A DNA stretch of 64,000 nt from an uncultured Syntrophaceae bacterium (lineage in GTDB: Bacteria > Desulfobacterota > Syntrophia > Syntrophales > PHBD01), in assembly GCA_964396205.1 (NCBI GenBank), contig CAYNEJ010000002.1:2631-66630 (forward strand). Reading direction: 5' to 3'. Position 1 is the stretch's first letter, and each line of letters starts with the position of its first letter. Positions 5,731 to 50,440 of the stretch are shown piece after piece. The position numbers were made by a program, and so were the translations under genes. Below the pieces are notes generated by a model. That model did no database searches and had not been told where the DNA came from. It worked only from the letters and a program-made list of their open reading frames with translations.

Positions 5731-7314
5731 ATGAAAAAAAGCAATTCGGAACTGGCGGCGCATCTGTCCCGCGGGCCGGCACACAGGCTGGTGCCCGTGC
5801 CGGAGGGGGAGTTCGTCGTTGTCTTCAACCCGCGGGTCGAGTCCTGGCTTGCCCGGCGCTGGACCCGGGAGACGGTCCGCGAGATCCGGTCCGAGCTGGA
5901 ACCCTCCCTGCAAATTCACCTGACGAAGGAGGGCTTCGCCCGGGCCGCCGACCGGAAAACGGACGGAAAGCGCGACGAGCTGCATTACGACACCGTCTGG
6001 ATCCGCGATGCCATGTGGGTTTTCTTCGATCTCCGGGAGCGTCCCGAACGGCGTCCGGATGCCCGGCGGCTCCTCCTGGCGGTCTGGGATTACTATGCCG
6101 CGTCGGCCCAGCTCCGGCGGTTCGACGAGGTCATCGCCCATCCCCGCCTTGCCGTCGACATGATGCGGGTCCCCCGCATCCGCTTCGACATTCATCCCCA
6201 TGGACCCGACGACGTCCTGGACGCGGACGGACGGCCGCAGGTCTGGAACCATCGTCAGAACGACGCCCACGGCCTTTTCCTGATCGCCCTGGCGGAAGGG
6301 GTGCGGGAAGGCATGGTCGGACCCGGGGACCTGGGTGCAGGGCGATGGGAGGCCCTGCTTCGCTTTCCCGCATACTTCAGGCGGATCCGGTTTGCGTCCT
6401 CCGAGGACGCGGGGGCCTGGGAGGAGCTGGAGCGGCGGAACACGTCGAGCATCGGCCTGGTCACGCGGGCCATGGAGCTGTGGCGGGGGCTTCTGTATGC
6501 CGGGGAGGGAAGCGGTGCGAGCGACTCGTTCCACGGCTGCTTCCGCCGGCTTCTCGATGCCTCCGGGTACGCCTGGAAGGAGGCGTGGCGGCTGGAGGCC
6601 CTGGATCGTCTGATTGCGCGGGGGCTCAGAACCGTACGGCGTCAGATCGCGCTGGGCGGAGAATCGCCGGATTACGATCCCTGTGACATCCGGTTCCGGA
6701 GGGCCGATGCCGCGCTGCTTGCCCTGCTGGTCCCGTCGCCGCTGTCGGGTCTGCGGGAGCATGAGATCAGGCAGGTCGTCACCATCGTGGAGACCCTCCG
6801 GGGGCCCGCCGGGATCCTGCGCTACCGGAACGACAGCTACCAGTCCGGCAACTATTGGATCAGGCCGCCGGAGAAGAAAAAAGAGGGGCGACGGAAAGGC
6901 GGGACGGAGGAGACCTCTTCCCGGGAAGCCTACCTCAAGCGCGGTGAAAAACTGATTCCGGGCACCGAGGCCCAGTGGTTCTTCGACAGCATCCTGGCCT
7001 CGGCCCGTCTGCACCTGGCCTCCATGGGCAGGGACGCGAGACGCAGCGGGCATGATCGCTTCCTGGCGATCGTGCACCTGAAGCGGGCTCTCGGGCAATT
7101 GACCGGGTCCTTCGGCGGCGCTCCCATCCTGGCGGCCGACGGCGGGGTCCTGGAGCCGCTGCTTCCCCCGGAAAGCATCAACACCGTGATCATGGAAGGC
7201 CGGTCCCACTGGCTTCCCTCCCCGATTGCTCCGCTCAACTGGGCCCGGGCGGCACTGGGCATGGCCCTGCGCCGCTGCGAGCGGGAGGGGTTTCGGCAGG
7301 GATCCGAAGCATGA
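5731..7314 (+). CDS. glycoside hydrolase family 15-like (glucoamylase/phosphorylase-kinase-like) protein
   Basis: YDTVWIRDAMW, NHRQNDAHGLFL and EDAGAWEELERRNTSSIGL resemble GH15 catalytic-domain motifs. Confidence 0.75.
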   Translation: MKKSNSELAAHLSRGPAHRLVPVPEGEFVVVFNPRVESWLARRWTRETVREIRSELEPSLQIHLTKEGFARAADRKTDGKRDELHYDTVWIRDAMWVFFDLRERPERRPDARRLLLAVWDYYAASAQLRRFDEVIAHPRLAVDMMRVPRIRFDIHPHGPDDVLDADGRPQVWNHRQNDAHGLFLIALAEGVREGMVGPGDLGAGRWEALLRFPAYFRRIRFASSEDAGAWEELERRNTSSIGLVTRAMELWRGLLYAGEGSGASDSFHGCFRRLLDASGYAWKEAWRLEALDRLIARGLRTVRRQIALGGESPDYDPCDIRFRRADAALLALLVPSPLSGLREHEIRQVVTIVETLRGPAGILRYRNDSYQSGNYWIRPPEKKKEGRRKGGTEETSSREAYLKRGEKLIPGTEAQWFFDSILASARLHLASMGRDARRSGHDRFLAIVHLKRALGQLTGSFGGAPILAADGGVLEPLLPPESINTVIMEGRSHWLPSPIAPLNWARAALGMALRRCEREGFRQGSEA

Positions 7315-7373: not shown

Positions 7374-8216
7374 TCAGTGGTCGGGACTGTCGGGGATCCG
7401 GATGATGTGGAGGCGGCTCTCCAGGCCGATCGCCCGGAATTTGTCGGTGATGATCGCCTCGAGGGTGCGGCTCGTGTCCGTGGCGGGCCGGGGGATCTTG
7501 CACATCAGGACGAGGCGCCCTCCATACCGGTAGAAGCTGGTCCCGACCGTGTCGTGGGCCAGGCGGACCACGGCGGACAGCGACAGATCCCGGTCATCGA
7601 GAACCAGGGCGCGGGTGCGGATCATCGACCGGACATACGGCGGCAGGCCGAAAAAAGCGGCCAGCCGCTCCCCCAGGTAGGGATGATAGGCGTCGATGAA
7701 GTCTTCGTCCAGGACGCCCTCTTCGTCCCCCTCTGTTTTCCGGTAGACGATCATTCCTTTTCTGCCCATCTCCAGGAGCATTCCTCCCAGCTCCGCCTTC
7801 CTCACCGCCTCTTCCCGGAAGCCCATCTGGATGGCCAGGACCTGTGCCATCACCGACGTGGCATAGGATCGCGCAAACAGCAGCTCCAGCTCCTCGTCGC
7901 CGCGACCGTGGTGAAGGATGGCCAGGGTCAGAATCAGGGCCTTCACCTGGTGGAGGCCGAGACGGTTCACGACCTCGAAGAACGTCTTGGCGTCGCCCCG
8001 GCGCAGTGTGCCGAGATAGACCGAGTTGGCGATGCTGAAAAGGGAGAGGGAGATTTCGTCGCCGATTTTTCCCCGCAGGGATTCGATCTCGTTCCGGTCG
8101 GCGTCCGGGTTGTCGAGGATCTGAAAGATCTCCGGCCTGAGGAATCGATCATGAATCGTTCCCGTCAGCGCTTTCTCGATCTTGTCAATCAGGGCGATTG
8201 CGTCGTCGGATACCAT
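7374..8216 (-). CDS. HDOD domain-containing signalling protein
   Basis: LSLFSIANSVYLG...VVNRLGLHQVKALILTLAI pattern. The + strand ORF 7311..8276 opposite it is Arg/Gly-rich and judged an artefact. Confidence 0.75.
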   Translation of the reverse strand: MVSDDAIALIDKIEKALTGTIHDRFLRPEIFQILDNPDADRNEIESLRGKIGDEISLSLFSIANSVYLGTLRRGDAKTFFEVVNRLGLHQVKALILTLAILHHGRGDEELELLFARSYATSVMAQVLAIQMGFREEAVRKAELGGMLLEMGRKGMIVYRKTEGDEEGVLDEDFIDAYHPYLGERLAAFFGLPPYVRSMIRTRALVLDDRDLSLSAVVRLAHDTVGTSFYRYGGRLVLMCKIPRPATDTSRTLEAIITDKFRAIGLESRLHIIRIPDSPDH

Positions 8217-13308: not shown

Positions 13309-13324
13309 TGTGATCTTCATCACA
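13309..13324. promoter_or_regulatory. perfect CRP/HcpR-type palindrome TGTGA-N6-TCACA
   Basis: TGTGAtcttcaTCACA read directly. It sits in an AT-rich stretch, with TAATAT at 13344-13349 placing the site near -41.5. It is 97 nt upstream of GTG 13421. Confidence 0.55.
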
Positions 13325-13420
13325 GACATCAACTGCATTTTCATAATATTCGGCGTGGGAATTCGAAATGGCAGGGGGATTCAGAAGGTGGAGTCACCCG
13401 GACCGGAGGCGGAGGAGGCG

Positions 13421-13621
13421 GTGGGAGAAAAGCTGGTGCGCATCTATGAACTCGTGACCGAGAAGACCGGTCTCCATGGCAGGCTCGAACTTGCCGTGAA
13501 AACAGGGATATCCATGAGCAAGGCCGTCGAGGTGGAGGATACGGAAGAGCTCGTGCACAGGTTCAAAAATGCGGCAAGTGATGTCTACGAAGCGTTTTGC
13601 GGAAAAAAGCGTCATAACTGA
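13421..13621 (+). CDS. 66-aa protein, paralog 1 (HTH-like core ELAVKTGIS)
   Basis: GTG 13421 after GGAGGAGG. Colinear with the 66-aa ORF 15004..15204, with 29/66 identical ungapped by my count. Confidence 0.7.
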   Translation: MGEKLVRIYELVTEKTGLHGRLELAVKTGISMSKAVEVEDTEELVHRFKNAASDVYEAFCGKKRHN

Positions 13622-13632
13622 TCCGGCAGGAG

Positions 13633-14514
13633 ATGGGGCCCGTGGAAAGCGCGACCAGGAGAGATCTCAAGTTGATCGTGGACAACGAAGACTTCGCGGA
13701 AGGCCTGTCGCAAGCGGACAGGCCGGCCTCTAAAGAGGAAATGCACCGCTGGCCGATCTGCGGCCTGCCGGTGGGGAGCTTCCTGCAGGTGATCGCCATG
13801 GACCAGCAGACCTGCATCCTGGAAGTCTATCAGAGCGCCGATCGCCAGGGCCGCTTCTGCTTTGTTCAGGGATCCCTTTATGACGCTGTCTGCAACAGCC
13901 TGGAGGGAGAAGAGGCCGCGCTGGAGATGGTGTCCTGGGAGAGCGTCCGCCTCAACATCCGGCAGATTGTCGATGCCGGCGGCTTTGCGAAGAAGATCGA
14001 CAAGAGCCTCATGTCGATCCTGATGGAATCTTCAAGGCGCCGCGATGAGGCGGCGGACGCGCACGGCGGCACCGAGAAGGAGAAAACCGCGGCGGAGGAC
14101 CCTGGCGGCGGGGGGGAAGAATTCAAGAAATGCCTCCGCATTCTTCGGGAGGACATGGGGGATGCGCTCATCTCGGCAAGCGTTGCCGACCTTTCCACGG
14201 GGAACGTCCTGGCGTCGCATCACAACCGAAAAACGCTGGAAACCGCACAGCTTTTCATGAAGCTGACGGCTTCCCTCCGGATGGCCTTCGAAAGAGATCC
14301 CGAACAGAAGCGGCTCGGCGGCCATTACATCCTGAACCTCAGGGAAGGGCAGACGCTCATGGTCCTGCTCTTCGACGAGCATCAGCTGGGTCTCCTGTTC
14401 GACAACGCCAAATGCTCATTGGGCCTTGTCCTGAATGCCATTGTTCCAAAGGTTGCCAGGGCATTCCAGGAATGCGGCTGTTCAGCCGCCTCCCGGGATG
14501 CACGGTCCGGATGA
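13633..14514 (+). CDS. PATAN/DUF4388 domain protein fused to a Roadblock/LC7-like domain
   Basis: N-terminal half GLPVGSFLQVIAMDQQTCILEVY...GRFCFVQGSLYDA...GEEAALEMVSWESVRLNI fits DUF4388. The C-terminal half is colinear with the 124-aa downstream protein. Confidence 0.8.
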   Translation: MGPVESATRRDLKLIVDNEDFAEGLSQADRPASKEEMHRWPICGLPVGSFLQVIAMDQQTCILEVYQSADRQGRFCFVQGSLYDAVCNSLEGEEAALEMVSWESVRLNIRQIVDAGGFAKKIDKSLMSILMESSRRRDEAADAHGGTEKEKTAAEDPGGGGEEFKKCLRILREDMGDALISASVADLSTGNVLASHHNRKTLETAQLFMKLTASLRMAFERDPEQKRLGGHYILNLREGQTLMVLLFDEHQLGLLFDNAKCSLGLVLNAIVPKVARAFQECGCSAASRDARSG

Positions 14515-14610
14515 CCGACGGGCGAGGGGGCCGTGTCGAGGGGTCCCCCGGAAGATGGGTGTCGAGCGGCTGTTCAGTAAACAATTCAATATTTCTAAAG
14601 AGGAGGCGTG

Positions 14611-14982
14611 ATGAACATACAGAAATTGAATGGTTGTCTGGAAGGATTGAGGAAGGACCTGGGGGACGGTCTCCTGGCATCGAGCATCGTCTCCACGGAG
14701 GACGGACAGGTACTCGTGGCGACGGAAAGATCCAACACGGCCGGGGCCACCCTGCTGAATGAAATTACGGCCTCCATCCGTGATGGCCTGAAGACATACC
14801 CCGTGGAGCTGGGACAGTACTATTACATCGATGTCGCGGGGAACATGGGCATTCTCGCCATTCCCTTCGGGGACTACCAGTGGGCGATCGTCGTCAACAA
14901 GAAGCAGGTCAAGCTGGGACTGCTGTTGAATGTCGTGCTGCCCAGCATCATCAATGCATTCGAAGATGCAGTCGTGTCTTAG
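14611..14982 (+). CDS. Roadblock/LC7-like protein (divergent)
   Basis: ATG 14611 after AGGAGG. LGDGLLASSIVSTEDGQVLVA...LGLLLNVVLP, paralogous to the C-terminal half of 13633..14514. Confidence 0.75.
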   Translation: MNIQKLNGCLEGLRKDLGDGLLASSIVSTEDGQVLVATERSNTAGATLLNEITASIRDGLKTYPVELGQYYYIDVAGNMGILAIPFGDYQWAIVVNKKQVKLGLLLNVVLPSIINAFEDAVVS

Positions 14983-15003
14983 AAAAGGCGGAGGGGAGGG
15001 ACG

Positions 15004-15204
15004 ATGGGAGAAAAAATGGTTCGGATCTTTGAGATTGTCATGGAGCAGGCGGGTCTGAAAGGGCGCATGGAGCTGGCGACCCGGACGGGAATATCCCAGA
15101 CCATGGCGGCCCAGATGAAGGATACCGAGGAGTTGGTAAAAAAATTAAAGGAAAACGCCAACTTGATCCTTGATCGGAGCAACCTGAATACCATCGGCCA
15201 TTGA
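15004..15204 (+). CDS. 66-aa protein, paralog 2
   Basis: ATG after GGAGGGGAGGG. MGEKMVRIFEIVMEQAGLKGRMELATRTGISQ...DTEELV matches 13421..13621. Confidence 0.75.
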   Translation: MGEKMVRIFEIVMEQAGLKGRMELATRTGISQTMAAQMKDTEELVKKLKENANLILDRSNLNTIGH

Positions 15205-15338
15205 TGAACGACGCTTCGCGGAGGGCCCTTGCGAGGGTCACGCCGGGTCGCGCCGCCGGTCATGAAGCCGAGAGGAGATGAAATGAATGCCGAGCAATCC
15301 CTTCACAGGGGGACCTGCCGTCGGCGGGAGAGACAACC

Positions 15339-15728
15339 GTGAGTCTGATCCTGGGTCGGCAGCATCTTGATAAGATCCAGGACTCCCTGCAGAAGAACCT
15401 GATCGGGTCGGGTGTCCGGAATGCCATGCTGATCGATATGGCCGGCAACGTCATTGTGACGGTCGACAACGGCGGGGAGGCGCGCGACATGTATTCGCTG
15501 GCCGCGCTGGCGGCGGCCAATTTCGGGGCCATGTGCAGCATGGCCCGGATCGTCGGGGAGGATGAATTCTCCCTCCTGTTTCACAAGGGGCAAAAAGAAA
15601 ACATCTATTTCACCAGGGTGAACGACGAGTTTCTCCTGATCAACATCTTCAACAACGAAGTGACCCTGGGATTTCTCAGGCTGAAAATGGCCCAGGTCAT
15701 CGAAGAATTGTCCCGTGTTCTGGACTGA
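15339..15728 (+). CDS. mglB: MglB-type Roadblock/LC7 GTPase-activating protein
   Basis: LAALAAANFGAMCSMARIVGEDEFSLLFHKGQKENIYF...VTLGFLRLKM is colinear with the Myxococcus MglB core as I remember it. Confidence 0.85.
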   Translation: MSLILGRQHLDKIQDSLQKNLIGSGVRNAMLIDMAGNVIVTVDNGGEARDMYSLAALAAANFGAMCSMARIVGEDEFSLLFHKGQKENIYFTRVNDEFLLINIFNNEVTLGFLRLKMAQVIEELSRVLD

Positions 15729-15800
15729 GATCCTTTCATCCGGCCGCCGTCAGGCCGGATGAGCAAGGCATGTGAGGCATCAGGCGGGGAGGAAACGGAT

Positions 15801-16421
15801 TTGGCATTCATCAACCTGAAGGACCGGGTCATTCAAGCCAAGATTGTCTACTACGGTCCCGGGCGATGCGGGAAAACGACCAATCTGGAATTCATCTACA
15901 GCAAGTGCCGCGAGCAGATCAATTCCGAGATGGTGACGGTCAAGACGCAGGGTGACCGCACCCTGTTCTTCGATTTCTTCCCGTTCGATATCGGAAAAAT
16001 CGCCGGATACGATGTGAAAATCCAGCTGTACACCGTTCCCGGCCAGGTGAAGTACAATTCAACGAGACGGCTGGTGCTCAAAGGCGTGGACGGCGTCGTG
16101 TTCGTGGCGGATTCCGAGGCGGAGCGGCGAAGCAAGAATGTGGCCTCCCTGATGAATCTCCAGGAGAACCTTGCCCTTTACAACAAGAACATTTTCGAGA
16201 TGCCGCTGGTCATGCAGTACAACAAACGGGACCTTGAAAAGCAGGGGATCGAGACGCTGGATATCGAGACCCTGGAGAAAGATCTCAACGATGTGCTGAA
16301 GGCACCGTCATTCGGGGCCAGTGCGCTGGACGGAGACAATATCGTTGCGACCCTGAAGAAAATCATATCGCTGACCATGTACTCCCTGGAAAAGGAACTG
16401 GAGAACGGGGATTGGCAATGA
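15801..16421 (+). CDS. mglA: MglA-family Ras-like small GTPase
   Basis: P-loop YYGPGRCGKTT, switch I DRTLFFDF, switch II YTVPGQV, and NKRD. TTG 15801 (after GGGGAGGA) aligns with the Myxococcus MglA N-terminus (SFIN...). ATG 15759 is the track alternative. Confidence 0.9.
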   Translation: MAFINLKDRVIQAKIVYYGPGRCGKTTNLEFIYSKCREQINSEMVTVKTQGDRTLFFDFFPFDIGKIAGYDVKIQLYTVPGQVKYNSTRRLVLKGVDGVVFVADSEAERRSKNVASLMNLQENLALYNKNIFEMPLVMQYNKRDLEKQGIETLDIETLEKDLNDVLKAPSFGASALDGDNIVATLKKIISLTMYSLEKELENGDWQ

Positions 16422-17569
16422 AAGAGTCGTCATTCGTTCGGGAAGTGGAAGATCGTCTGGATGTCCTGTTCGGGATCGGCTTGGATTCCTCGGATCGCGG
16501 CGGGAAAGCGGGACCGGATCACGGGAATGCCAGGACCATTCTGGAAAGCATCACCGCCGAATCCGCCGGGGAGAACTTGGAAGCCACGGCGGTTCTGAAC
16601 ATGGACGATCCGTTGAACGGCAGGGAAGACTCCGTGCCGCCCGGTCAGGAGAAACGATATCACGTCCTTTTGGAGGAAGCCGGGGAGGAGGCGGATCCGG
16701 AACCCGGGGCCGTCGATCACCCCGTTCTCGAGGAAATCTCCGCCGTCACCGAGCCGCCCGAGCCGGACGCGGACGGGGGCCGGCGCTTCGAGCGCATTTT
16801 CGGTGATATCGGATCGTACACGCCGGCGCTGTTTTCCCCGCTTAAGAACCTGAAAGGCATTCTCCTGTCCCTGGAGTGGGAAATCAGCGATCCCCTGTTG
16901 AACAGGCTGGACGTGGAGCTGAACGGATTGCAGGAGCTGTATCGCCACGAGCGGACCATTCTCGGCTTCCTGCGGATTCTTCGCTTCCTGGAACGCTACA
17001 TCCGGGTCAAGCGGGGGGATTCCCATACCGAGTCCGTCAAACTGCTTTTTTCCGTCTACGACGACCTGGAGCGGGTCATTCTGTCCAAAACCATGGTGGA
17101 AGAAATAAAGCGGTCCATCCTGGTGGTCGATATCGGGAAATACAGGGATTGGGTGGAGAACATCGACCTCTCCTTCTGTACCGGGCCGGGCGCCGGGGAT
17201 AGCGGCGCCCCCGCGATTGCGGAAGAACCGGACGACGCGTCCGGGGTCCTGCCGTCTTTCGGCATGGAGGACGCCCTGCCTGCGATGGAGCCGTCCCTGC
17301 CTGCGATGGAGCCCCCGCTTGTGATGGAGCCCCCGCTGCCTGTGATGGAGCCCCCCCCGGGCCCCGCTCCCGGTGTGCTGCCGTCTGCCGAAGCCGGAGT
17401 CGAACGGTCCGCTGACGGAAGCGAAAGCGCCGGGACGGACCTCTCCGCCGTGCTGAAAACGATGGCACCGCACGAGGCCTTTGCCTTTGCCCTGGAGGAG
17501 ATGAAAAAAACGATCCATGACGAGTTCGAGGCGCTCCGGGCGGAGATTCGGATCCGGGGGGCGCGTTGA
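16418..17569 (+). CDS. acidic/proline-rich hypothetical protein with helical core and LPAMEP repeats
   Basis: ATG 16418 overlaps the mglA stop (ATGA). No family recognised. The central region LLSLEWEISDPLLNRLDVELNGLQELY... looks helical. Confidence 0.7.
   Translation: MKESSFVREVEDRLDVLFGIGLDSSDRGGKAGPDHGNARTILESITAESAGENLEATAVLNMDDPLNGREDSVPPGQEKRYHVLLEEAGEEADPEPGAVDHPVLEEISAVTEPPEPDADGGRRFERIFGDIGSYTPALFSPLKNLKGILLSLEWEISDPLLNRLDVELNGLQELYRHERTILGFLRILRFLERYIRVKRGDSHTESVKLLFSVYDDLERVILSKTMVEEIKRSILVVDIGKYRDWVENIDLSFCTGPGAGDSGAPAIAEEPDDASGVLPSFGMEDALPAMEPSLPAMEPPLVMEPPLPVMEPPPGPAPGVLPSAEAGVERSADGSESAGTDLSAVLKTMAPHEAFAFALEEMKKTIHDEFEALRAEIRIRGAR
17276..17356 (+). repeat. four tandem 18-21 nt coding repeats (LPAMEP-type)
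   Basis: ctgcctgcgatggagccgtcc / ctgcctgcgatggagcccccg / cttgtgatggagcccccg / ctgcctgtgatggagcccccc. Confidence 0.85.
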
Positions 17570-17587
17570 CGTGCACGGGTGACGGGG

Positions 17588-17752
17588 GCTGCCGAAAATG
17601 ATCGTGTTCTGCGAGGAGTGCGGGGAGAGAATCATCATTGAACCCGAGGAGATAAGGGAATCGGTGATGGTCATCATCTGCAGGGTCTGCAGGGACGTCA
17701 TCCGGATCACCGTTCCGAATGCGGCGAGGCAGGAGCAGCGGATTCAAAAACC
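17588..17752 (+). CDS. 54-aa MJ0042-type zinc-ribbon protein
   Basis: Below the ORF-track size cut-off. MIVFCEECGERIIIEPEEIRESVMVIICRVCRDVIRI... has two CxxC pairs. Confidence 0.6.
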
Positions 17753-17839
17753 TGAGAAATGAGCCGCGCATCGGATTCACTCCGGCGCTCGCCGGCGTGA
17801 TGACCGCATGCCGGGACGCAAAGGAGTCAAGGGGAAGAG

Positions 17840-18985
17840 ATGAATGTCCCGAATGAAACATTCGACTTGATTCGTGAAAAACAGGAACTGGATGCTTTTT
17901 TGTCGACATTCATGACCGTGAGTCCGCCTCTGCCCGTGGAAGAAGCAGGGGAATCCGGTCCTGTGCCGTGCATTGCGCCGTCTCCGGCGATATACGAGGA
18001 AAGCGACAAACCCGCTTCGGTCGGAAAAGAGACCTCCCCGGACGGTATGCCGGAGACACCGGTTTCGGTTGCACCGGCCGTTTCTCCGGCAGAGGTCGAA
18101 CCGGTTTCCATTGCGGAACCGGTTGGGGCCGCTGCCCCGGACAGCGGGCGGGAGGAATCGCTCTCCCCGGAAGAGGAGCCGGAACAGCGTCCGGAGCCTC
18201 CACAGAATCAGGCGCCCCCGGTCTTCGCGGAGCTTCTGCCGATCGACCGGCCCGCCGGGGCTCCGGAAAGCCGCAGCGACGTCCCGGAGATGGACCGGAC
18301 CTTGAGGCTTGAGCGAGGAAAGTTGGAGGCCGCCGCCTCCGCCGAAGCGGAGGGAGACGATAAAACGAACAGCGGGGAAGCGGCGAACGGCGTCTCCGTT
18401 TCCGGCAACCGGGCAAAACACCGGCGCCCGTTGCTTCTGTCGGCCCTGCTTCTGTGCCTGGCTCTGGCCCTTCTCCTGCTCGGCTACTCGTGGCTTCGGC
18501 CCTCCAGCGGGCAGGGGGCGGTTCAATGGCTGTCCCTGCATGTTCCTGTTGCCCGTCAATACCTGGAAGTCGGACAACCGCATCCGAATCCCGCGGGCAG
18601 GCAGGTCGGGATTGTCAACCTTCAGCAGCGGCTCGTCAGAAACGAGGTCCTCGGCCGGGAGATCCGGATCATCGAGGGAACGGCGTTCAACCGGGGACAG
18701 GAAAGCATCTCGGGAATCCGAATCAGGGGCGAGCTTTACGATGCCCAGGGCCGGCTTGCCGCCGCGCGGATGTCTTTCTGCGGAAGCATGATGGCCGACG
18801 ATCACCTGCAAACCCTGGGAGAGCAGGAACTCCGCCTGGCGCTTTTGGCTGCACAGGCACCCCCCCAGGCGTACAGCGCGGTTCCACCCGGGGGCCAGAC
18901 GCCGTTCATGATCGTGTTCATCCAGGAGCCGCCGGGGATCGTCCGGGCCATGGTGGAGCCCGTCGGCATGGAAACGGTCCGCTGA
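17840..18985 (+). CDS. single-pass membrane protein with C-terminal DUF3426-like domain
   Basis: Long acidic/Pro-rich N-terminal region and TM helix LLLSALLLCLALALLLLGY. The C-terminal beta-rich region IRIIEGTAFN...IRIRGELYDAQGR...FMIVFIQ is typical of DUF3426. Confidence 0.7.
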   Translation: MNVPNETFDLIREKQELDAFLSTFMTVSPPLPVEEAGESGPVPCIAPSPAIYEESDKPASVGKETSPDGMPETPVSVAPAVSPAEVEPVSIAEPVGAAAPDSGREESLSPEEEPEQRPEPPQNQAPPVFAELLPIDRPAGAPESRSDVPEMDRTLRLERGKLEAAASAEAEGDDKTNSGEAANGVSVSGNRAKHRRPLLLSALLLCLALALLLLGYSWLRPSSGQGAVQWLSLHVPVARQYLEVGQPHPNPAGRQVGIVNLQQRLVRNEVLGREIRIIEGTAFNRGQESISGIRIRGELYDAQGRLAAARMSFCGSMMADDHLQTLGEQELRLALLAAQAPPQAYSAVPPGGQTPFMIVFIQEPPGIVRAMVEPVGMETVR

Positions 18986-19116
18986 CCCTGCGGAGCGAAG
19001 GCGTTTCTGCGTGCCCGGTGGATGCGGCTCCGGTTTCCTGTTGTGCGGATCTATCGATGTTCGTCCCTCCCGCCCGAGACCATCTTCCTGCGGGTTTTCC
19101 GCTTCCGGTCCTGATC

Positions 19117-21429
19117 ATGCAAGAAGCAAATCATTCTGAAAAATCAAACCATTCCAGCGAAATCAACGAACTGGAAGAGATTCTCCGCCTCCAGAACGAG
19201 CTTCAGGACATCACCAACGAGATTTATGCCGCCCAGGGCCTGGCGCAGATATTCACCGACTGCAGCAGAAGGATCGTGAATCTTTTCCGGGTCGAAGCGG
19301 TGAATATCTATGCCGTCGACAAGCAGCGGAGGGAAATCTATACCATCATCAAGGCGGGACACCTGTTCCGGGAGCAGCGGATGGCCATCAACAACCGGTC
19401 GATTCCCGGTTATGTCGCCGATAACGGCTTTGCGATCAACATCGCCGACATTCACGACCAGGCCGAGATGAAAAGCCGCTGCAAGGGACTGGACCTCGCC
19501 GGCGACCGGGATGCCCGTTCAAACACCCGTCTCAGGCAGGTCATGGCCATGCCCATTATCCATGAGGGTGAGGTCATCGGCGTCATCGAGGTGATCAACA
19601 GGCCGGGACGGGAAGGAAGATTCGTCGAGGAAGAACCGGTTTTGCTGCAGGAGATCTCGGAAGTCCTCGCCATCGCGTTCTCCAATCACAACCGGTATGC
19701 CGGCCGGCGGAAAACGCGTTTCGATTCCCTCATCCGGAAAGGGTTCCTGAAGGAAGAGGACCTCGATCAAGCCCTGGAGGAGGCCCGGGAAAAGAAAGAG
19801 ACCATGGAAGACTTCCTGATGAGAAAATTCGGCATCTCGAAGGAAGATCTCGGCCAATCGCTGGAAGAGTTTTACCGGTGCAGATTCTTCCAGTTCAGCG
19901 ACAAAATCCCCATTCCCGCGGAACTCCTGGTCCGGCTCAACAAGGAATACCTGCATCGGGAGCTCTGGGTGCCCATCGAGAAATCCGACGGCCGGATTCA
20001 TATCCTGGTCAGCGATCCCGATAACATCATCAAGCGGGACATGATCGAAAATCTCCTGAAAACGAAGGATATCCGGTACGATGTCGCCCTTCCGGAGGAC
20101 ATCTCCAGGTTCATCGATTATTTCTACCAGTCCCATGGGGATGAAACGTCCATCTCGGACATCATCGGCAGGCTGGAAAACCCCGAGGAGGGCGAGGAGG
20201 AAGGCGAGGAAGAGGCCGTTACGGAATCGGACAGCGCGATCATGCTGCTCGTCAACAAGATCATCAACGATGCGGTCGGCAGGCGGGCGTCCGATATTCA
20301 CATCGAACCCAATATCGGCCGGAGGAACGTGGAGGTCCGCTTCCGCATCGACGGCGACTGCTCCGTATACCAGACCGTGCCCTTCAGCTATCGGGCCGCT
20401 CTTGTCTCGCGGATCAAGATCATGTCCAACCTGGACATCACCGTGAAGCGGATCCCCCAGGACGGGAAGATCAAGTTTCGCCGGAATGGAAGCGATGAGA
20501 TCGAGCTGCGCGTGGCGACGCTGCCGACCCAGGGGGGAGTCGAGGACGTCGTGATGCGGCTTCTCGCCAAGGGGGAAACGCTGCCCTTGGAAGCCATGGG
20601 CATGCTGGACCGGAATTATGAGGAACTCCTCAAGGTCTGCGAAAAGCCGTACGGCATGATCCTCGTGGTCGGGCCGACGGGCTCGGGGAAAACGACCACT
20701 CTCCACGCGGCCCTTCGTCATATCAACACCCCGGAGAAAAAGATCTGGACGGCGGAGGATCCCGTGGAAATCACCCAGTACGGACTCCGGCAGGTCCAGG
20801 TGCAGCCCAAGATCGGCTTCGACTTTGCAACGGCCATGCGGGCCTTTCTCCGAGCCGATCCGGACGTGATCATGGTGGGGGAAATGCGCGATTTCGAAAC
20901 GGCCAAGACCGGCGTGGAGGCCTCTCTGACGGGTCATCTCGTCTTCAGTACGCTGCACACGAACAGCGCCCCGGAAACCATCATTCGGCTCCTCGACATG
21001 GGCATCGATCCCCTGAACTTCGCCGACGCCCTCCTCGGCGTCCTCGCCCAGAGGCTGGTCCGGACGCTGTGCAAAAACTGCCGCGAACCCTATCATCCCA
21101 GCCGGAAGGAATACGACGAAATGGCGGAGAGTTACGGCAGGGAACGGTTTGAGGAGCTGGCCGTCTCCTACACGAACGACCTGACCCTGTACCGGCCCCG
21201 GGGCTGCGACCTCTGCGACCGGTCAGGATACAAGGGACGCGTGGGCATCCACGAGCTCCTCATCGCCAGCGACGGTGTGAAACGGCTCATCCAGAAAAAC
21301 GAAACCGTCGAGACGCTGCGGGAGAAGGCCATGTCCGAAGGGATGTCCACACTCCTCCAGGACGGCATTCAAAAAGCCCTTCGGGGCATTACCGACTTCC
21401 GGCAGGTCCGGAGGGTCTGCATCAAGTAG
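19117..21429 (+). CDS. GAF domain-containing GspE/PilB-family secretion ATPase
   Basis: ATG 19117 within ORF 18454..21429; the upstream part overlaps the previous gene. The GAF-like N-terminal region is followed by a T2SSE_N-like region. Walker A GPTGSGKTT, Walker B DPDVIMVGEMRD, tetracysteine CKNC...CDLC. Confidence 0.9.
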   Translation: MQEANHSEKSNHSSEINELEEILRLQNELQDITNEIYAAQGLAQIFTDCSRRIVNLFRVEAVNIYAVDKQRREIYTIIKAGHLFREQRMAINNRSIPGYVADNGFAINIADIHDQAEMKSRCKGLDLAGDRDARSNTRLRQVMAMPIIHEGEVIGVIEVINRPGREGRFVEEEPVLLQEISEVLAIAFSNHNRYAGRRKTRFDSLIRKGFLKEEDLDQALEEAREKKETMEDFLMRKFGISKEDLGQSLEEFYRCRFFQFSDKIPIPAELLVRLNKEYLHRELWVPIEKSDGRIHILVSDPDNIIKRDMIENLLKTKDIRYDVALPEDISRFIDYFYQSHGDETSISDIIGRLENPEEGEEEGEEEAVTESDSAIMLLVNKIINDAVGRRASDIHIEPNIGRRNVEVRFRIDGDCSVYQTVPFSYRAALVSRIKIMSNLDITVKRIPQDGKIKFRRNGSDEIELRVATLPTQGGVEDVVMRLLAKGETLPLEAMGMLDRNYEELLKVCEKPYGMILVVGPTGSGKTTTLHAALRHINTPEKKIWTAEDPVEITQYGLRQVQVQPKIGFDFATAMRAFLRADPDVIMVGEMRDFETAKTGVEASLTGHLVFSTLHTNSAPETIIRLLDMGIDPLNFADALLGVLAQRLVRTLCKNCREPYHPSRKEYDEMAESYGRERFEELAVSYTNDLTLYRPRGCDLCDRSGYKGRVGIHELLIASDGVKRLIQKNETVETLREKAMSEGMSTLLQDGIQKALRGITDFRQVRRVCIK

Positions 21430-41244: not shown

Positions 41245-42090
41245 ATGCTTCGCTGCACTCGCATCTTGCCGGGCCTGTCTTGTCTCCTGTTCATGGCGTT
41301 CCTGTTTTGCGAGGGTGCGCCGGACGCGCTGGCGGGAGATACGCTTCGAATCAACGGATCCGGAGCCGCTCTGGAGATGATGAAGCCCCTCATGATGGCC
41401 TACGGCAAAACGGAGAGGGGCGTCTCGTTCGCCATGGACAAACCGCTGGGCAGCTCGGGCGCGATCAAGGCGCTTCTTGCCGGGGCGATCGATATCGCCG
41501 TCGTCAGCCGTCGTCTGAAGCCGGAGGAGATTAACCGGGGCGGAAGAGAAAGGCCTTTTGGCAAAACCCCCCTGGTCATTGTGGTGGAGAAATCGAACCG
41601 GCTGAAAACCATTTCAACGACCGGGCTGGAAGACATCTATGCCGGCCGGGTAAAGAAATGGCCGGATGGGGAAACGATCCGGATCATCCTTCGTCCCAGG
41701 GCGGATACCGATACGAAGATCTTGAGGGGTCTTTCTCCGCGCATGAACGAGGCCGTCGCCGTGGCGCACCGTCGGAAGGGAATGAGGATTGCCTTGACCG
41801 ATCCGGAGTCGAACGAGGCCGTTTCCAGAACGGCCGGAGGGATCGGAACCGCCGCGCTTGCCGGTGTGCTGGTCGCCGGGCTGCCGCTGAATGTTGTCGC
41901 GCTGAACGGCGTCAAGCCGGACCGAAAAACCCTTGCCGATGGAACCTACCCGCTTGCCAAGGAGATCGGCTTCGTAACGGCCGGTACACTTTCCGCTGCC
42001 GCCGCACAATTCCTGGAATTCGTCTACTCGGAGAAAGGACGCGCCATTGCCGAGAAATACGGAGTCCTTGTTCCCGTTGCCGGAAAATGA
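41245..42090 (+). CDS. PstS-family (PBP-like_2) periplasmic substrate-binding protein
   Basis: LRINGSGAALEMM...GSSGAIKALLAGAIDIAVVSR. Confidence 0.8.
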   Translation: MLRCTRILPGLSCLLFMAFLFCEGAPDALAGDTLRINGSGAALEMMKPLMMAYGKTERGVSFAMDKPLGSSGAIKALLAGAIDIAVVSRRLKPEEINRGGRERPFGKTPLVIVVEKSNRLKTISTTGLEDIYAGRVKKWPDGETIRIILRPRADTDTKILRGLSPRMNEAVAVAHRRKGMRIALTDPESNEAVSRTAGGIGTAALAGVLVAGLPLNVVALNGVKPDRKTLADGTYPLAKEIGFVTAGTLSAAAAQFLEFVYSEKGRAIAEKYGVLVPVAGK

Positions 42091-43727
42091 AGCTGCATAA
42101 CCGATCCGTAACCCGCGTCTCATCCCTCCTGGTTGTCATCATCAGCCTTGTTGTGGCCGTTTGCTTACCCGTCGGTTACTTCGTCGTTTCATACGGATAC
42201 ATGGAGGGCGGCGTCCACGCCGAACTCGCATTCTCCGCCCGGACCGTCGAAGGACTGGTCGTCAGAAATCCCAAAACCTGGCAGTTCGAGGAAGTCCGTC
42301 TCCAGGAGATATTGGAATACAGGCTTAATTACGGAGTTCACGAGAAGCGGGCCGTCCGGGATATGAAGGGGCGGGTCATCGCCCGGACGCCGGAGTCCCT
42401 GACGGGGCCCCTGGTAACCTTCCGTGCACCCGTTCATGATGCCGACAAAAAGGTCGCGGAAGTCGAGATCACCCGCTCCATCTTCCCTCTCATGCTGCAG
42501 ACGGTCATCGTCGGGGCCGGTTCCTTCATGACGGGAATCCTGTTGTTCCTTTTCTTTCAGTCCTACCCGCTGCGGGCGGTGCGGGAAGCCCATCAAAAGC
42601 TGGCGGAGAACGAGAAACGCCTCACACTTGCCCTGAGGGCGGGCGATTTCGGCGTCTGGGATTGGGACATCAAAAAGAACATCGTCACCTGCAATGACAG
42701 GATGTACGAGATATTCGCCGTTTCCAGGGAGTCCTGCGTCACCCGGGACGACTGGCTGAACTGCGTTCATCCGGAAGACCGCGACAGGGCCCTGAGAGAT
42801 TACATCCCCCGAATGATCGGGGACAAGGGATTCAACACCGAGTACCGCATCATTCATTCCGACGGGGCGGTCCGGCATATCCAGGCCAACGGCATCGTGT
42901 TGCTGGATGAGGGAGGCAAACCCGCGAGGCTGATCATCCTGAACCGGGATGTCACCGAGCGCAAACGGGCGGAGGAAGAGCAGCTGAGAGTTCAGAAGCT
43001 GGAGTCCGTCGGAACGCTGGCAGGGGGAATTGCCCACGATTTCAATAATCTCCTGGCGGTCATCCATGGGTACATCGAGCTTCTGATGGCGGATGCACCA
43101 CCGGGGGAGAAGGTCCGCGGCCGACTCGAGGCCGCCAAAAAAGCGGTCGGCCAGGCGATGGAGCTGACCAGCCTTTTGATCACGTTTTCCAGGGGAGGGG
43201 AACCGGTCCGGGAGGTTGTGGACATCGGCGAAATGCTGAAGGATGCCGTCTCGAAGAACATTGGTGAATGGCCCGTGGAACGGAAATTCCAACTGGCCGC
43301 CGATCTCTGGGTCCTGGAAGTTGATGAGCGGCAGATACGCCAGGTAATCAGGAGCCTGGCGATCAATGCCGTCGAGGCAATGCCCGAAGGGGGGAGTCTC
43401 ACGGTCCGGGCGGAGAATACAAGGGTTACGGCACAGGACGGCCTGCCGATCGCAGAGGGGCCCTATGTCAGGATATCCATGGAAGATACGGGAACGGGCA
43501 TCCCGAGAGAGGAGCTGCCGCTGATCTTCGATCCCTATTTTTCCACCAAGCAGAGAGGGCCGGAAAAGGGGATGGGGCTCGGCCTGTCGGTCTGTCACTC
43601 CGTGGTCGGCAGGCACAACGGCTGCATCACCGTGGAGTCGGAGCAGGGGAAAGGGACCACGTTCCACGTGTACCTCCCGGCGGGCGTCAGTCTCAGCACC
43701 TCCGCTCAGCGAACCGCCGCCGGATGA
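42087..43727 (+). CDS. sensor histidine kinase (TM, PAS, HisKA, HATPase)
   Basis: ATG overlaps the upstream stop (ATGA). PAS region, H-box GGIAHDFNNLL, and G-box GMGLGLS. Confidence 0.9.
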   Translation: MKLHNRSVTRVSSLLVVIISLVVAVCLPVGYFVVSYGYMEGGVHAELAFSARTVEGLVVRNPKTWQFEEVRLQEILEYRLNYGVHEKRAVRDMKGRVIARTPESLTGPLVTFRAPVHDADKKVAEVEITRSIFPLMLQTVIVGAGSFMTGILLFLFFQSYPLRAVREAHQKLAENEKRLTLALRAGDFGVWDWDIKKNIVTCNDRMYEIFAVSRESCVTRDDWLNCVHPEDRDRALRDYIPRMIGDKGFNTEYRIIHSDGAVRHIQANGIVLLDEGGKPARLIILNRDVTERKRAEEEQLRVQKLESVGTLAGGIAHDFNNLLAVIHGYIELLMADAPPGEKVRGRLEAAKKAVGQAMELTSLLITFSRGGEPVREVVDIGEMLKDAVSKNIGEWPVERKFQLAADLWVLEVDERQIRQVIRSLAINAVEAMPEGGSLTVRAENTRVTAQDGLPIAEGPYVRISMEDTGTGIPREELPLIFDPYFSTKQRGPEKGMGLGLSVCHSVVGRHNGCITVESEQGKGTTFHVYLPAGVSLSTSAQRTAAG

Positions 43728-43944
43728 AACCGGAGGCAGGGAAAGCCGCATTCCGGCGGCGGACGACGGGACCGCGATCCGCGGCACGGCGAAGGAGAAG
43801 AAACGCCGGGCCCTGAAACCATGCCATCAGGGACCTGGGGCCGGGCCGGCGCACCCGCCGGCCGGGGCTTCGTCAGTGTCACTCCGATGGCGAAGGAGTA
43901 CCGGGAGAACCACACCGCCCGATTCAATTTCTCAGGAGGGAAGG

Positions 43945-45183
43945 ATGATCGAAGAAAGAATGAATAGCAAAATTGCATTCCTGCTGGTTTTTCTATTCCT
44001 GACGGTGCTTTTTGCGTTTTGCCCCGCGGACGTCCCGGCGTCGCCCCGGGCTCCGCAAATGACCTGCCTGACGGAGCAGTACCCGCCCTTCAACTATGCC
44101 GAGAAGGGGCGCCTGGAGGGTATCGCGGTCTATCTGCTCGAAGAAATGATGAAAAAGGCGAACATCGGATTCAGCCGGGACCGAATCCGGCTGACAAGCT
44201 GGACGGCGGCATACCGGACGGCCCTGAAAACGAAAAATGCGATCCTGTTCTCCACGACCAGAACACCGGAGCGGGAAACGCTCTTCCAGTGGGTCGGTCC
44301 CATCGCCCCGACCAGGGTCGTCCTGATCGCCCGGAAAGACCGGGCGTTAAAGATCAAGGCTATCGACGATTTGAAAGGCTTGAAGATTGCCGCGCTGCGG
44401 GACGACATCGGGGAACAGCTTCTGGCCCGGGGAGGGATCAAAGGCAAGTCCGTCACGGTCAGGAAAAATGCGGAAGACGCGATCCGCCTGCTCGAGGCGG
44501 GAACCGTCGATGCCTGGGCCTACGAGGAGACAGCGGGACTCTGGCTGATCAAGCATGTGGCGGCCGATCCGGGAAATTACGAAAGCGTTTATCTCCTCCA
44601 CCAGGGCGAGCTCTACTATGCCGTGAACCGTCGCACCCCGAAGGAAACGGTTCAGGCGTTGCAGCAGGCGCTGGACAATCTCAAGCGGGAAAAAACCAGG
44701 GAGGGCTTCAGCGTTTATGAGGAAATCTTCGACCACTACCTGAAGCCCCGCTACACGAAAGACCGGATCACCGCCGAGCAGGTGATGCAGCTGGTCGACC
44801 GCACGGCAAAAGACCTGGCCGGGGACGCCGCAGCAACGATCCGCAGGATCAACAACGGCGACCATCCTTACCGGGACAGGGACAACGCGGCTCTGTACGT
44901 CTTCATGTACGATCCGGCGGTGATGATGATCGCCCATGCCGAAAACGCCAAAACGGTGGGCAGGAGCTTCAAGGGGAAAACAGACGTGGAGGGGAAGGCC
45001 TTCCGGGACGAAATGGTCGCCAGGGCGTTGAAGGACGGGAGCGGCTGGGAGGAGTACGTCTATACCAATCCGGGTGAAAGCGGGCTCTACGTGAAGGCGA
45101 CCTACTTCAAGGCGGCGAAGGGCAGCGACGGCAAAACGTACATCGTCTGTTCGGGAAAATTCAAGGATAAGCCGGGACCGTAG
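43945..45183 (+). CDS. secreted fusion of SBP_bac_3-type binding domain and single-Cache_2-like domain
   Basis: Signal peptide. N-terminal half EQYPPFNY...LFSTTRTPERETLFQWVGP. C-terminal half YVFMYD...IAHAEN...GKTDVEGKAF...GWEEYVYTNP...YVKATYFK. Confidence 0.8.
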   Translation: MIEERMNSKIAFLLVFLFLTVLFAFCPADVPASPRAPQMTCLTEQYPPFNYAEKGRLEGIAVYLLEEMMKKANIGFSRDRIRLTSWTAAYRTALKTKNAILFSTTRTPERETLFQWVGPIAPTRVVLIARKDRALKIKAIDDLKGLKIAALRDDIGEQLLARGGIKGKSVTVRKNAEDAIRLLEAGTVDAWAYEETAGLWLIKHVAADPGNYESVYLLHQGELYYAVNRRTPKETVQALQQALDNLKREKTREGFSVYEEIFDHYLKPRYTKDRITAEQVMQLVDRTAKDLAGDAAATIRRINNGDHPYRDRDNAALYVFMYDPAVMMIAHAENAKTVGRSFKGKTDVEGKAFRDEMVARALKDGSGWEEYVYTNPGESGLYVKATYFKAAKGSDGKTYIVCSGKFKDKPGP

Positions 45184-45279
45184 ATTGAAGGCGGCATGTC
45201 CCTCATCGTTCGGAAACGGATCGATCCCGCTGCCGCCATTCCAAGTTCCGGCCATCCCATTTCGAGGAAAGGATTATTG

Positions 45280-46065
45280 ATGAAAAAATACGGTTGGTTC
45301 TGTTTGCTGCTGAGCTTGCTGGTTCTTCTCGGGTGTACATGTCCGTTTCAGAAGAACGTGAAAGGCGCTTCCGACCTTCAGATGCTGACGGAGGAATACC
45401 CGCCCGTGACATTCATGAAGGACGGGAAGGTCGCCGGTTTCGTCACGGACGTGGTGCGGGAGATCGCTGCCCGCCAGGGAATCCGGGACAACATCCGGCT
45501 GACCTCCTGGGACGAGGCCTACAAAACGGCCCTGAGCAGGCCGAACGTCGTGCTTTTCAGCACGGAGCGGACGGAAAAAAGGGAGCAGCTCTTTCACTGG
45601 GTGGGACCGGTCGGAAAAAACAGCGCCATCCTTTACGCGAAGAAAGGCTCCGGCATCCGGATCAACAGCCTGGATGACGCCAGAAAGGTTGCCGCCATCG
45701 CCACGACGACCGACTGGTTCACGGAACAGAACCTGAAGAGCAAAGGATTCACGAATCTCGTCAGCTCGCCCCTTCCCGTCACCAATGTCACGCAGCTCAT
45801 GAAGGGCGAGGTTCAGCTTGCCGTCTTCACCGACGTTACCGTCCCGCAGATTGTGAAAAATGCGGGATACAGCATGAACGACCTGGAGCCGGTCTATCCC
45901 GTGAGCAGCACGTACTTTTACATTGCCATATCGCGTGGCACGCCGGAAGAGACGGTCAGGAAATGGCAGTCCACTCTGGACGGCCTGAAAGCGGACGGGA
46001 ACTTCGAAACGATATACCGGCGGTATCTGCCCAACGCGGATCTCGCCGATCTGCTGAGAAAATAG
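45280..46065 (+). CDS. SBP_bac_3-type substrate-binding lipoprotein
   Basis: Lipobox LLVLLGCT. EEYPPVTF...LFSTERTEKREQLFHWVGP, paralogous to the N-terminal half of the previous gene. Confidence 0.85.
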   Translation: MKKYGWFCLLLSLLVLLGCTCPFQKNVKGASDLQMLTEEYPPVTFMKDGKVAGFVTDVVREIAARQGIRDNIRLTSWDEAYKTALSRPNVVLFSTERTEKREQLFHWVGPVGKNSAILYAKKGSGIRINSLDDARKVAAIATTTDWFTEQNLKSKGFTNLVSSPLPVTNVTQLMKGEVQLAVFTDVTVPQIVKNAGYSMNDLEPVYPVSSTYFYIAISRGTPEETVRKWQSTLDGLKADGNFETIYRRYLPNADLADLLRK

Positions 46066-46426
46066 GGAATCAATTTTTACCGGCGGCACGCCGTTTCCAT
46101 GTTTTCCATCAAGATCAGGCGGGAGTCATGGCCGTCCGTCCTGCCGGGAGATGCGATACAGGTCTCCCGACAGGACCGCCGGCATGGTCCGCCTCATGGA
46201 CATCGATGATCCGAGCCTCTCGACACCATGAAACCTCCTTCATCAATTTCTCCAAAAAATTAAAAATATTCGGCTTTGTATCAAAATCTGGTATAAAAAT
46301 ACCGGCCGTACCCGGGGCAAAGAAGCGGAGGCTGGAAAATCAGCCGCAATTTCCATCGTCCGCCTGACGCATCGTGGAGCTGGCCGGTTGTGAATGTTTT
46401 TTTCTCCTTTCAGGCCGGTGAGAGAC

Positions 46427-49036
<2,610 letters not shown>

Positions 49037-49313
49037 TGGTGCAAAGTGCCTTGTCACCCTGGACGCGGCGGCGCCTTCAGAAGAGCGGATCCGGGGCGGG
49101 GTGCCGGGCCGGGTGAAAAGCGGCGGGAAATAAACCGGCGAAGAATTCAGCATGGACGCGGAGAAAAATTGCAGATAGATTAACCGTGCCTTTGCCGCCC
49201 GGGGCAGGGGCGGGAAGCGGGATCGGACGGGTGGAAGAGGAACGGTGTATCGACGCCGGGATGCCCCCCCCGGTCGCGGATGGCGTCGGGAAGAAGGAGG
49301 CAGGAGCCGATTC

Positions 49314-49610
49314 ATGACGAAAGTTCCCGTGTCAAAACTCGAGCCTGGCATGAAACTGGCCAAGCCGGTGACCGCCGGAAGCGGCATGGTCTTGCTTGGC
49401 GAGGGCACGGAACTCACTGCCGCGCGGATCGAACGAATCCAGGATATGAACATTGCCAGTGTCTTTGTGGAGGGTCCGCCGGTTCAGGCCGTCGGGAAGG
49501 AGGAAGCCCTGGACAACCTTGACGCGAGATTTTCCCGTGTGGAAGGCAAGCCTGCTATGGATCGAATCAAAAGAATCGTGAAAGAGCATATTGAAGGCCT
49601 GTATGAGTAA
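49314..49610 (+). CDS. small protein resembling the N-terminal (DUF3391-like) module of HD-GYP proteins
   Basis: ATG after GAAGGAGG. VSKLEPGMKLAKPVT...GMVLLGEGTELT. The family call is tentative. Confidence 0.6.
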   Translation: MTKVPVSKLEPGMKLAKPVTAGSGMVLLGEGTELTAARIERIQDMNIASVFVEGPPVQAVGKEEALDNLDARFSRVEGKPAMDRIKRIVKEHIEGLYE

Positions 49611-50436: not shown

Positions 50437-50440
50437 TCGC

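Follow-up and report, generated by a model that had tools for sequence, protein, structure and literature searches.

In Myxococcus xanthus, the GTP-bound form of the small GTPase MglA recruits the pilus extension ATPase PilB via the TPR protein SgmX, which acts "by an unknown mechanism" (PMC11580455), and the way in which MglA-GTP brings the extension ATPase to the base of the pilus remains an open question. In the same organism, the zinc ribbon of GltJ binds and recruits MglB and speeds up the inactivation of MglA (PMC11135422). In Synechocystis, a PATAN domain interacts with PilC and with the N-terminal half of PilB1, and the same study speculated, from domain fusions, on a conserved association between PATAN and type II secretion system (T2SS) ATPases (bioRxiv 10.1101/2021.06.11.447907). 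In Caulobacter, ZitP, which joins a zinc ribbon, a transmembrane segment and a DUF3426 domain, is needed for polar pilus biogenesis, including that of Cpa pili, and the DUF3426 domain is required (PMC5182063). Here, we analysed a stretch of 64,000 nucleotides (the window) from an uncultured Syntrophaceae bacterium (GCA_964396205.1, contig CAYNEJ010000002.1, positions 2,631 to 66,630), in which a string of ten consecutive genes places an MglA-type GTPase, a PATAN domain, a putative ZitP-like anchor and a PilB/GspE-family ATPase together. On balance, we think it probable that this string represents a conserved Desulfobacterota module, in which an MglA/MglB switch gates a PilB/GspE-family extension ATPase of a machine that is encoded elsewhere. 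The ten genes, with the labels used below, are:

g1, 13421..13621, + strand: helical protein of 66 aa from an unnamed family, paralog of g4; likely start GTG 13421
g2, 13633..14514, + strand: PATAN (DUF4388) domain at residues 45-140 plus a predicted C-terminal Roadblock-fold domain
g3, 14608..14982, + strand: predicted stand-alone Roadblock/LC7-fold protein, an MglC-like paralog, on the basis of AlphaFold2 and Foldseek
g4, 15004..15204, + strand: small helical protein, second copy (paralog of g1)
mglB, 15339..15728, + strand: Roadblock GTPase-activating protein of 129 aa (Robl_LC7, 45.1 bits)
mglA, 15759..16421, + strand: Ras-like GTPase (206 aa when counted from the depositor's start at 15801)
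g7, 16418..17569, + strand: uncharacterised helical-bundle protein, overlapping mglA by 4 nt
g8, 17598..17762, + strand: zinc ribbon of 54 aa, of the ZitP/GltJ zinc ribbon type
g9, 17840..18985, + strand: bitopic membrane protein with one transmembrane segment and a periplasmic DUF3426 domain
ATPase, 19117..21429, + strand: PilB/GspE-family ATPase of 770 aa, GAF-MshEN-T2SSE

The string resembles the M. xanthus system in its mglB-mglA gene order and in its MglA, and the output of the M. xanthus switch, i.e., the recruitment of PilB by a TPR adaptor, has a parallel in the TPR-like N-terminus of the linked ATPases of Desulfobacterales and Desulfatiglandales. However, pilB lies in the pil cluster in M. 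xanthus, whereas here the ATPase is linked to mglA. No homologs of RomR/RomX, SgmX, FrzS or SopA were identified in the string, which instead adds Roadblock paralogs, PATAN, g7, small helical proteins and the ZitP-like pair; its MglB lacks the C-terminal extension, and its ATPase scores below the PilB cut-off and bears a GAF domain. With the cyanobacterial PatA-type (PATAN-REC) proteins, which act on PilB1 and PilC, the string shares that it encodes a PATAN protein together with a PilB-family ATPase, and relatives of the locus have REC-PATAN or REC-REC-PATAN proteins beside the ATPase. The PATAN domain of the window, by contrast, is fused to Roadblock and not to REC, and the input would be a small GTPase instead of a chemosensory kinase.

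The product of mglA matches M. xanthus MglA (6h17) at a phmmer E = 2e-53 and about 60% identity, and its similarity to 6h17 and 5ymx spans residues 16-212. The four motifs on which the original prediction had based its MglA call, made from the sequence alone, are all aligned: the P-loop GPGRCGKTT, DRTLFFDF with the intrinsic Arg, YTVPGQV, in which TVPGQ replaces DxxG, and NKRD. The accompanying MglB call holds as well, as the product of mglB, which lies directly upstream of mglA at a gap of 30 nt, scores 45.1 bits on Robl_LC7 (PF03259; cut-off 23) and matches MglB structures in the PDB at E = 1e-16; its score on the NCBIfam equivalog for Thermus-type MglB (63.6) is below the threshold of 200. 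Residues 23-128 of the protein align to chain residues 26-130 of the 160-aa M. xanthus MglB, i.e., the window MglB ends near M. xanthus residue 130 and is without a counterpart of the C-terminal extension.

MglB is accompanied by two further modules of the same fold. The PATAN assignment of g2 is based on PF14332 (38.4 bits; gathering score 25), and hhalign aligns its C-terminal 125 aa to the g3 family with Prob 100 and E = 2.7e-42. For g3 itself, no Pfam match was obtained, and hhalign aligned the g3 family to the MglB family with a Prob of only 0.3. However, the AlphaFold2 model of g3 (predicted local distance difference test score, 92.7) retrieved M. xanthus MglB chains as the best Foldseek matches (template-modelling score, 0.73-0.81; E ~1e-6), followed by other Roadblock proteins. 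By its structure model only, g3 is thus assigned to the Roadblock/LC7 superfamily, with the predicted alpha-beta-beta-alpha-beta-beta-beta-alpha sandwich fold. Because the g2 C-terminus is homologous to g3, whose model matches MglB, the string encodes three Roadblock-fold modules (MglB, g3 and the g2 C-terminus). The extra Roadblock paralogs that had been proposed before were therefore not recovered by sequence comparison with Pfam and hhalign, but they were recovered by structure modelling.

The ATPase consists of a GAF domain (residues 45-190), an MshEN/N1 domain (T2SSE_N, 204-343), which was absent from the original prediction, and a T2SSE core (PF00437, 400 bits). Its catalytic motifs are intact (Walker A at 519, Asp box at 547, Walker B at 585, His box at 606, and two CxxC at 652 and 697, forming a tetracysteine), so that all motifs of an extension motor are present and the protein belongs to the T2SSE superfamily of ATPases; its similarity to PilB/PilF structures is about the same as that to GspE structures. 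As in the MshE/PilB ATPases that bind cyclic di-GMP (c-di-GMP), the MshEN domain precedes the core, but the c-di-GMP motif is missing from both the window ATPase and 43 MglA-linked relatives. An MshEN receptor is recognised by two tandem 24-residue motifs, RLGxx(L/V/I)(L/V/I)xxG..., and a relaxed regular expression for the 24-residue motif (Wang et al. 2016) found no match in any of these proteins, while the NCBIfam model of the motif gave 26.5 against a cut-off of 38. Control by c-di-GMP via MshEN was discounted in view of the degenerate motif and the sub-threshold score.

Is the proximity of ATPase and MglA conserved? Homologs of the ATPase at 86-89% identity keep the whole string, but they also keep its flanks and are thus uninformative. 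More telling is an MglA-anchored scan of GTDB species representatives, which yielded 80 loci with an MglA identity of 91% to 53%. According to tblastn and clustering of open reading frames (ORFs), 42 of the 80 loci, and 27 of the 43 loci with full flanks, have a same-subfamily ATPase at a distance of no more than 10 kb from MglA, although the sampled loci are phylogenetically related and these counts do not represent independent events. The linked ATPase occupies different positions: directly after mglA (10 loci), after g7/Zn (7), after DUF3426 (6), convergent (6), or about 8 kb upstream (13). The genes flanking the string in the window (OYE, DnaJ-like, Crp) are kept only in the closest relatives. 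The original prediction had made its case dependent on the MglA-ATPase neighbourhood being conserved in other genomes, and this is what was found, in at least five arrangements with differing flanks and across Syntrophales, Desulfobacterales and Desulfatiglandales.

These arrangements differ considerably in gene content. In the clade of the window, the ATPase follows DUF3426. In Smithellaceae, it is located about 8 kb upstream, separated by two genes on the opposite strand, which encode a periplasmic binding protein and a 4HB_MCP-like protein, and the order thereafter is REC, PATAN-Roadblock, Roadblock, small protein, MglB, MglA, g7, Zn and DUF3426. In other Syntrophales (L015, L021, L023, L035, L037 and L097; e.g., L097 13181-18615, minus strand), the MglA string and the ATPase gene converge, and the latter shares its direction with three NAD-dependent epimerase/dehydratase genes in tandem; another member of this epimerase family is found near mglA in Desulforapulum loci (L061, L064, L066). 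Metagenome-assembled genomes (MAGs) labelled Desulfobacterales have the order MglB-MglA-g7-(Zn)-ATPase, and those labelled Desulfatiglans/Desulfatiglandales encode a PAS kinase, REC-HDOD, REC-REC-PATAN, a ParA/MinD-like ATPase, MglA and the ATPase, but no MglB. In two Desulfatiglandales loci (L062 14819-19478; L063), the MglA-ATPase pair is followed, a few kb further downstream, by genes for MotA/ExbB, two ExbD and a large FHA protein. A further arrangement comprises a kinase, MglB, MglA, g7, DUF8082, Zn-ribbon-HAMP, PAS, REC-PATAN, the ATPase and MCP. In the Desulfobacterales, Desulfatiglandales and DUF8082-type loci, the N-terminus of the ATPase is all-helical, TPR-like and non-homologous to GAF. 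The ATPase with its own GAF sensor, as proposed originally, thus describes the window protein, but not its counterparts in other orders.

Viewed from the ATPase, the linkage is less frequent. Among 79 ATPase-anchored metagenome loci, MglA occurs in 6 and REC-PATAN in 2 more, and neither PilT nor PilC was found in any of them. In a neighbour-joining tree, which is distance-based, rough and drawn from a biased sample, unlinked GAF-ATPases, including a Syntrophus aciditrophicus protein and the paralog P0027 described below, fall inside the MglA-linked clade, as sister to the clade of the window. Linkage to MglA is hence a strong and recurrent feature of one part of the ATPase family, not a universal one. 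On several soil and sediment contigs (L138, L141, L143, L145, L146, L150, L168, L172), an ATPase of about 770 aa (45-46% identical) follows rseP and proS, with an opposite-strand PilZ gene just downstream.

A putative link between the switch and the cell envelope is provided by g8 and g9. The 54-aa product of g8 contains a CxxC-X19-CxxC motif (C5, C8, C28, C31), whose cysteine positions equal those reported for GltJ and whose spacing equals that of ZitP (PMC5182063, PMC11135422); its score on PF13717 (22.9 bits) is under the cut-off. The product of g9 scores 34.4 bits on PF11906 (DUF3426) and has a transmembrane segment at about 196-220 (hydropathy 2.68), with an acidic, Pro-rich, cytoplasmic N-terminus and a periplasmic DUF3426 domain. 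All three elements of ZitP are present, but they are distributed over two genes in different frames instead of a single polypeptide, and this split is kept in relatives. Judged by sequence, g8 and g9 are a split ZitP-like pair, which shares with Caulobacter ZitP and with GltJ the zinc ribbon and the accompanying transmembrane DUF3426 protein and differs from them in the split, with no PopZ or CpaM evident. Moreover, the MglB helix that is contacted by the GltJ zinc ribbon is missing from the window MglB. A PDB sequence match of the zinc ribbon to 2nb9 (listed as "Uncharacterized protein"), which we take to be the ZitP zinc ribbon, was not significant (E = 1).

The gene between mglA and the zinc ribbon, g7, belongs to a family without a Pfam or NCBIfam match, which comprises 1028 clusters at 50% identity in a full HMMER scan. 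It follows mglA in 39 loci, and in the window the ATGA overlap of the two genes (16418-16421) suggests translational coupling. The sequence shows a repeated N-terminal F..E.RLD..FGED motif and an invariant PHEAF motif in the C-terminal helix. The AlphaFold2 model predicts, with confidence, a five-helix bundle (141-252), followed by a disordered Pro-rich linker and the C-terminal helix. A Foldseek search with this model returned nothing at E <= 0.001, the best match being a CheA P1/HPt domain at E = 0.1. The idea of g7 as an HPt protein was dropped, as the bundle contains no conserved His. Long members of the family (787-1353 aa; P0268, P0270, P0292, P0288) carry two to three copies of the bundle, with very acidic repeats in between (...GVDVExEADDDxDEEPLP...). 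One of the long proteins bears the JGI label 'pilus assembly protein FimV', which no PDB sequence match backs.

The small helical proteins g1 and g4 are about 50% identical over 53 aa. Their family, of which g1 is present in 21 related loci, has no meaningful match in Pfam, NCBIfam or PDB profiles. A helix-turn-helix reading of the two was an impression from their general look only, which no profile match supports.

While domain identities, intact catalytic motifs and evolutionary linkage are established by the analysis, the steps of a mechanism can be drawn by analogy. MglB and the two extra Roadblock-fold proteins, one of them fused to PATAN, might set the GTP state and the location of MglA. 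The zinc-ribbon protein and its transmembrane DUF3426 partner could serve as a membrane or polar anchor, and g7 and the PATAN domain may act as adaptors that recruit or license the ATPase via its N-terminal half. The GAF domain, or the TPR-like domain in other orders, would provide a second input to the ATPase. The ATPase, in turn, would most likely drive the extension of a type IV filament, with platform, pilins and secretin encoded elsewhere. Control of type IV filaments is favoured because the PATAN-PilB, MglA-SgmX-PilB and ZitP-pilus precedents all point there. A direct genomic connection comes from a Syntrophus-like MAG, in which an ATPase that is 71% identical to the core of the window protein, but lacks GAF, directly follows two genes that pass the PilT/PilU cut-offs; a full-length g7 homolog follows this ATPase, with no MglA nearby. 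This locus ties the ATPase subfamily and g7 to the motor ATPases of type IVa pili.

Several observations weigh against filament control by an MglA-gated extension motor, besides the relatedness of the sampled loci. Neither the window nor any sampled related locus contains a structural gene of a pilus or T2SS, and the adjacency to PilT is known from one locus type only. The ATPase reaches neither the cut-off of the type IV-A PilB model (TIGR02538, 502.7 bits; cut-off 675.65) nor that of the GspE model (TIGR02533, 485.3 bits; cut-off 630.25), and the linked ATPases of other loci that were tested score 492-507 on TIGR02538. The wider family of ~770-aa ATPases is mostly found among housekeeping genes (proS/rseP, mutS, queH, asd) without MglA, and where MglA identity drops below 57%, the ATPase is present in 0 of 11 loci, and MglA has different neighbours there, e.g., a Ser/Thr or a histidine kinase. 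Finally, the window MglB is without the C-terminal helix by which the GltJ zinc ribbon acts in M. xanthus.

The alternative that survives these considerations best, although we regard it as unlikely, is that the ATPase is an autonomous output and drives no type IV filament or T2SS. It would then be a mechano-enzyme that is gated by the GTPase and senses through GAF, or else part of a new minimal machine, perhaps formed with the DUF3426 protein and g7. The absence of machine genes speaks for this alternative: Pfam searches of the larger window ORFs and precomputed Pfam hits at 9-31 kb revealed no T2SSF, secretin or peptidase_A24, a six-frame scan of the window found no class III (prepilin) signal motif, and no complete locus for a T2SS or type IV pilus exists within the 64 kb. 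The original prediction had likewise found no platform protein, pilin, prepilin peptidase or secretin in the window, and none occurs in the sampled MglA-linked loci either. The scores below the PilB and GspE equivalog cut-offs, the typical location of the subfamily away from pilus genes, and the degenerate MshEN motif fit the same view. However, genes for type IVa pilus motors are often unlinked from the structural genes, known members of the family work through a polytopic platform protein while g9 is merely bitopic, one member of the subfamily adjoins two PilT genes, and all partner domains have pilus precedents. The further step taken originally, namely that the ATPase is the output of the module and not part of a classical T2SS or type IV pilus, is consequently not established, given the retained extension-motor motifs, the PilT-adjacent relative and the pilus precedents of the partners.

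A related and slightly less probable proposal also takes in a paralog in the same genome. The GAF-MshEN-T2SSE protein P0027 is 69% identical to the window ATPase and is encoded in another signalling operon (L001 10001-17222; contig 3294352-3316649), a tight same-strand string after glyQ/glyS that contains a CHASE2-Ser/Thr kinase, PP2C, FHA and an OmpA-like protein. The same block recurs in another Syntrophales chromosome (L178 10001-17102), and the ATPase subfamily thus appears to be coupled to alternative signalling modules. The description of the window ATPase as an 'orphan' has to be restricted, as the genome holds this paralog. The ~770-aa ATPases could be stand-alone, signal-gated hexameric effectors (gated by MglA/PATAN here and by CHASE2-Ser/Thr kinase/PP2C/FHA in the case of the paralog) instead of pilus or T2SS motors; together with g7 and the ZitP-like pair, they would make up a polar machine of Desulfobacterota that has so far gone unrecognised.

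It is improbable that the main role of the ATPase is that of a signalling protein for a polysaccharide output that is tuned by the MglA module. A precedent exists in M. xanthus, where PilB is described as a signalling protein that regulates exopolysaccharide (PMC5544727). In at least six loci the ATPase is co-directional with the three tandem epimerase/dehydratase genes mentioned above, and L052 has genes for a glycosyltransferase and a PIG-L deacetylase upstream of mglB. Yet sugar-nucleotide genes are missing from the window and from most arrangements, and the fully conserved catalytic motifs argue for a working motor.

The least probable explanation, to which we give little credence, is that the adjacency is meaningless synteny inherited in related lineages, with an ATPase that has nothing to do with the MglA module: the closest relatives do share the flanks too, the Smithellaceae copy is 8 kb off beyond two opposite-strand genes, and a complete Syntrophales chromosome (L044) has the module without a linked ATPase (a subfamily copy appears ~65 kb away, if two records represent the same sequence), but the proximity outlasts at least five rearrangements and a strand change, as well as the loss of MglB, the swap of the N-terminal domain, transfer across three orders and flank turnover.

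If the module does gate an extension ATPase, it would suggest that type IV filaments are spatially controlled in syntrophic anaerobes, which are for the most part non-motile. Type IV pili of syntrophic anaerobes have been discussed with regard to aggregation and electron transfer. Full-text searches of the literature that combined MglA with GspE, MshEN, PATAN, PilB or Desulfo* found no description of the present linkage, in agreement with the original prediction, which did not recognise the combination as a described system; a 2014 survey of prokaryotic small GTPases noted that such MglA groups have variable neighbourhoods, with PATAN as an occasional member (PMC4316618). The components and the logic are known, and the novelty lies in the combination of a conserved genetic coupling with a subfamily of ATPases that bear sensors, the g7 family, a fusion of PATAN to Roadblock and a ZitP-like pair split over two genes. 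With regard to the recruitment step that is still open in M. xanthus, the string offers candidate contacts, i.e., between MglA or g7 and the N-terminus of the ATPase, between PATAN and MshEN-N1, and between the zinc ribbon and a Roadblock protein, and sister orders have ATPases that carry a directly fused TPR-like domain. Moreover, three protein families without a Pfam model emerge from the locus: g7 (~1000 clusters at 50% identity), the small helical protein and the divergent Roadblock protein.

The gene calls on which this analysis is based are largely consistent. The ORF list, a simple codon-model gene call and the depositor's calls (GCA_053578375.1, a Syntrophales MAG, whose P0001 is identical to the window ATPase) all concur in ten consecutive genes on the + strand between 13421 and 21429, as had been noted from the sequence. 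The intergenic gaps are, from 5' to 3', 11, 93, 21, 134, 30, -4, 28, 77 and 131 nt, the negative value representing the ATGA overlap of mglA and g7. The coordinates given originally stand, except for the zinc-ribbon start at 17588: because of an in-frame TGA at 17580-17582, the earliest possible start of g8 is ATG 17598, and the preceding gap is 28 instead of 18 nt. For g1, GTG 13421 is preceded by a GGAGGAGG Shine-Dalgarno sequence and homologs begin at MGEK; the depositor's start at 13304 (105 aa) looks off in comparison. Likewise, the depositor's start of g9 at 18047 (312 aa) looks off, since relatives of 420-443 aa fit ATG 17840.

Co-transcription of the ten genes is plausible. The sole promoter-like site on the + strand (13319-13347) lies upstream of g1, in a sigma-70 scan that did not exceed the shuffled expectation, and no sigma-54 promoter was found upstream of the string. 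Terminator-like sites are absent from the intergenic gaps of the string, in a scan that was likewise not above the shuffled expectation, and an Rfam scan of the window detected neither a riboswitch nor any other RNA.

The surroundings of the string in the window consist of metabolic and signalling genes. A 527-aa ORF at 5731-7314 has good coding statistics and no Pfam match, and an HDOD gene is located at 7374-8216 on the minus strand. Further downstream, a same-strand sensory run (41658-51454) encodes a PAS histidine kinase, two SBP_bac_3 proteins (one with Cache), a MASE11-PAS hybrid kinase, HDOD and GGDEF.

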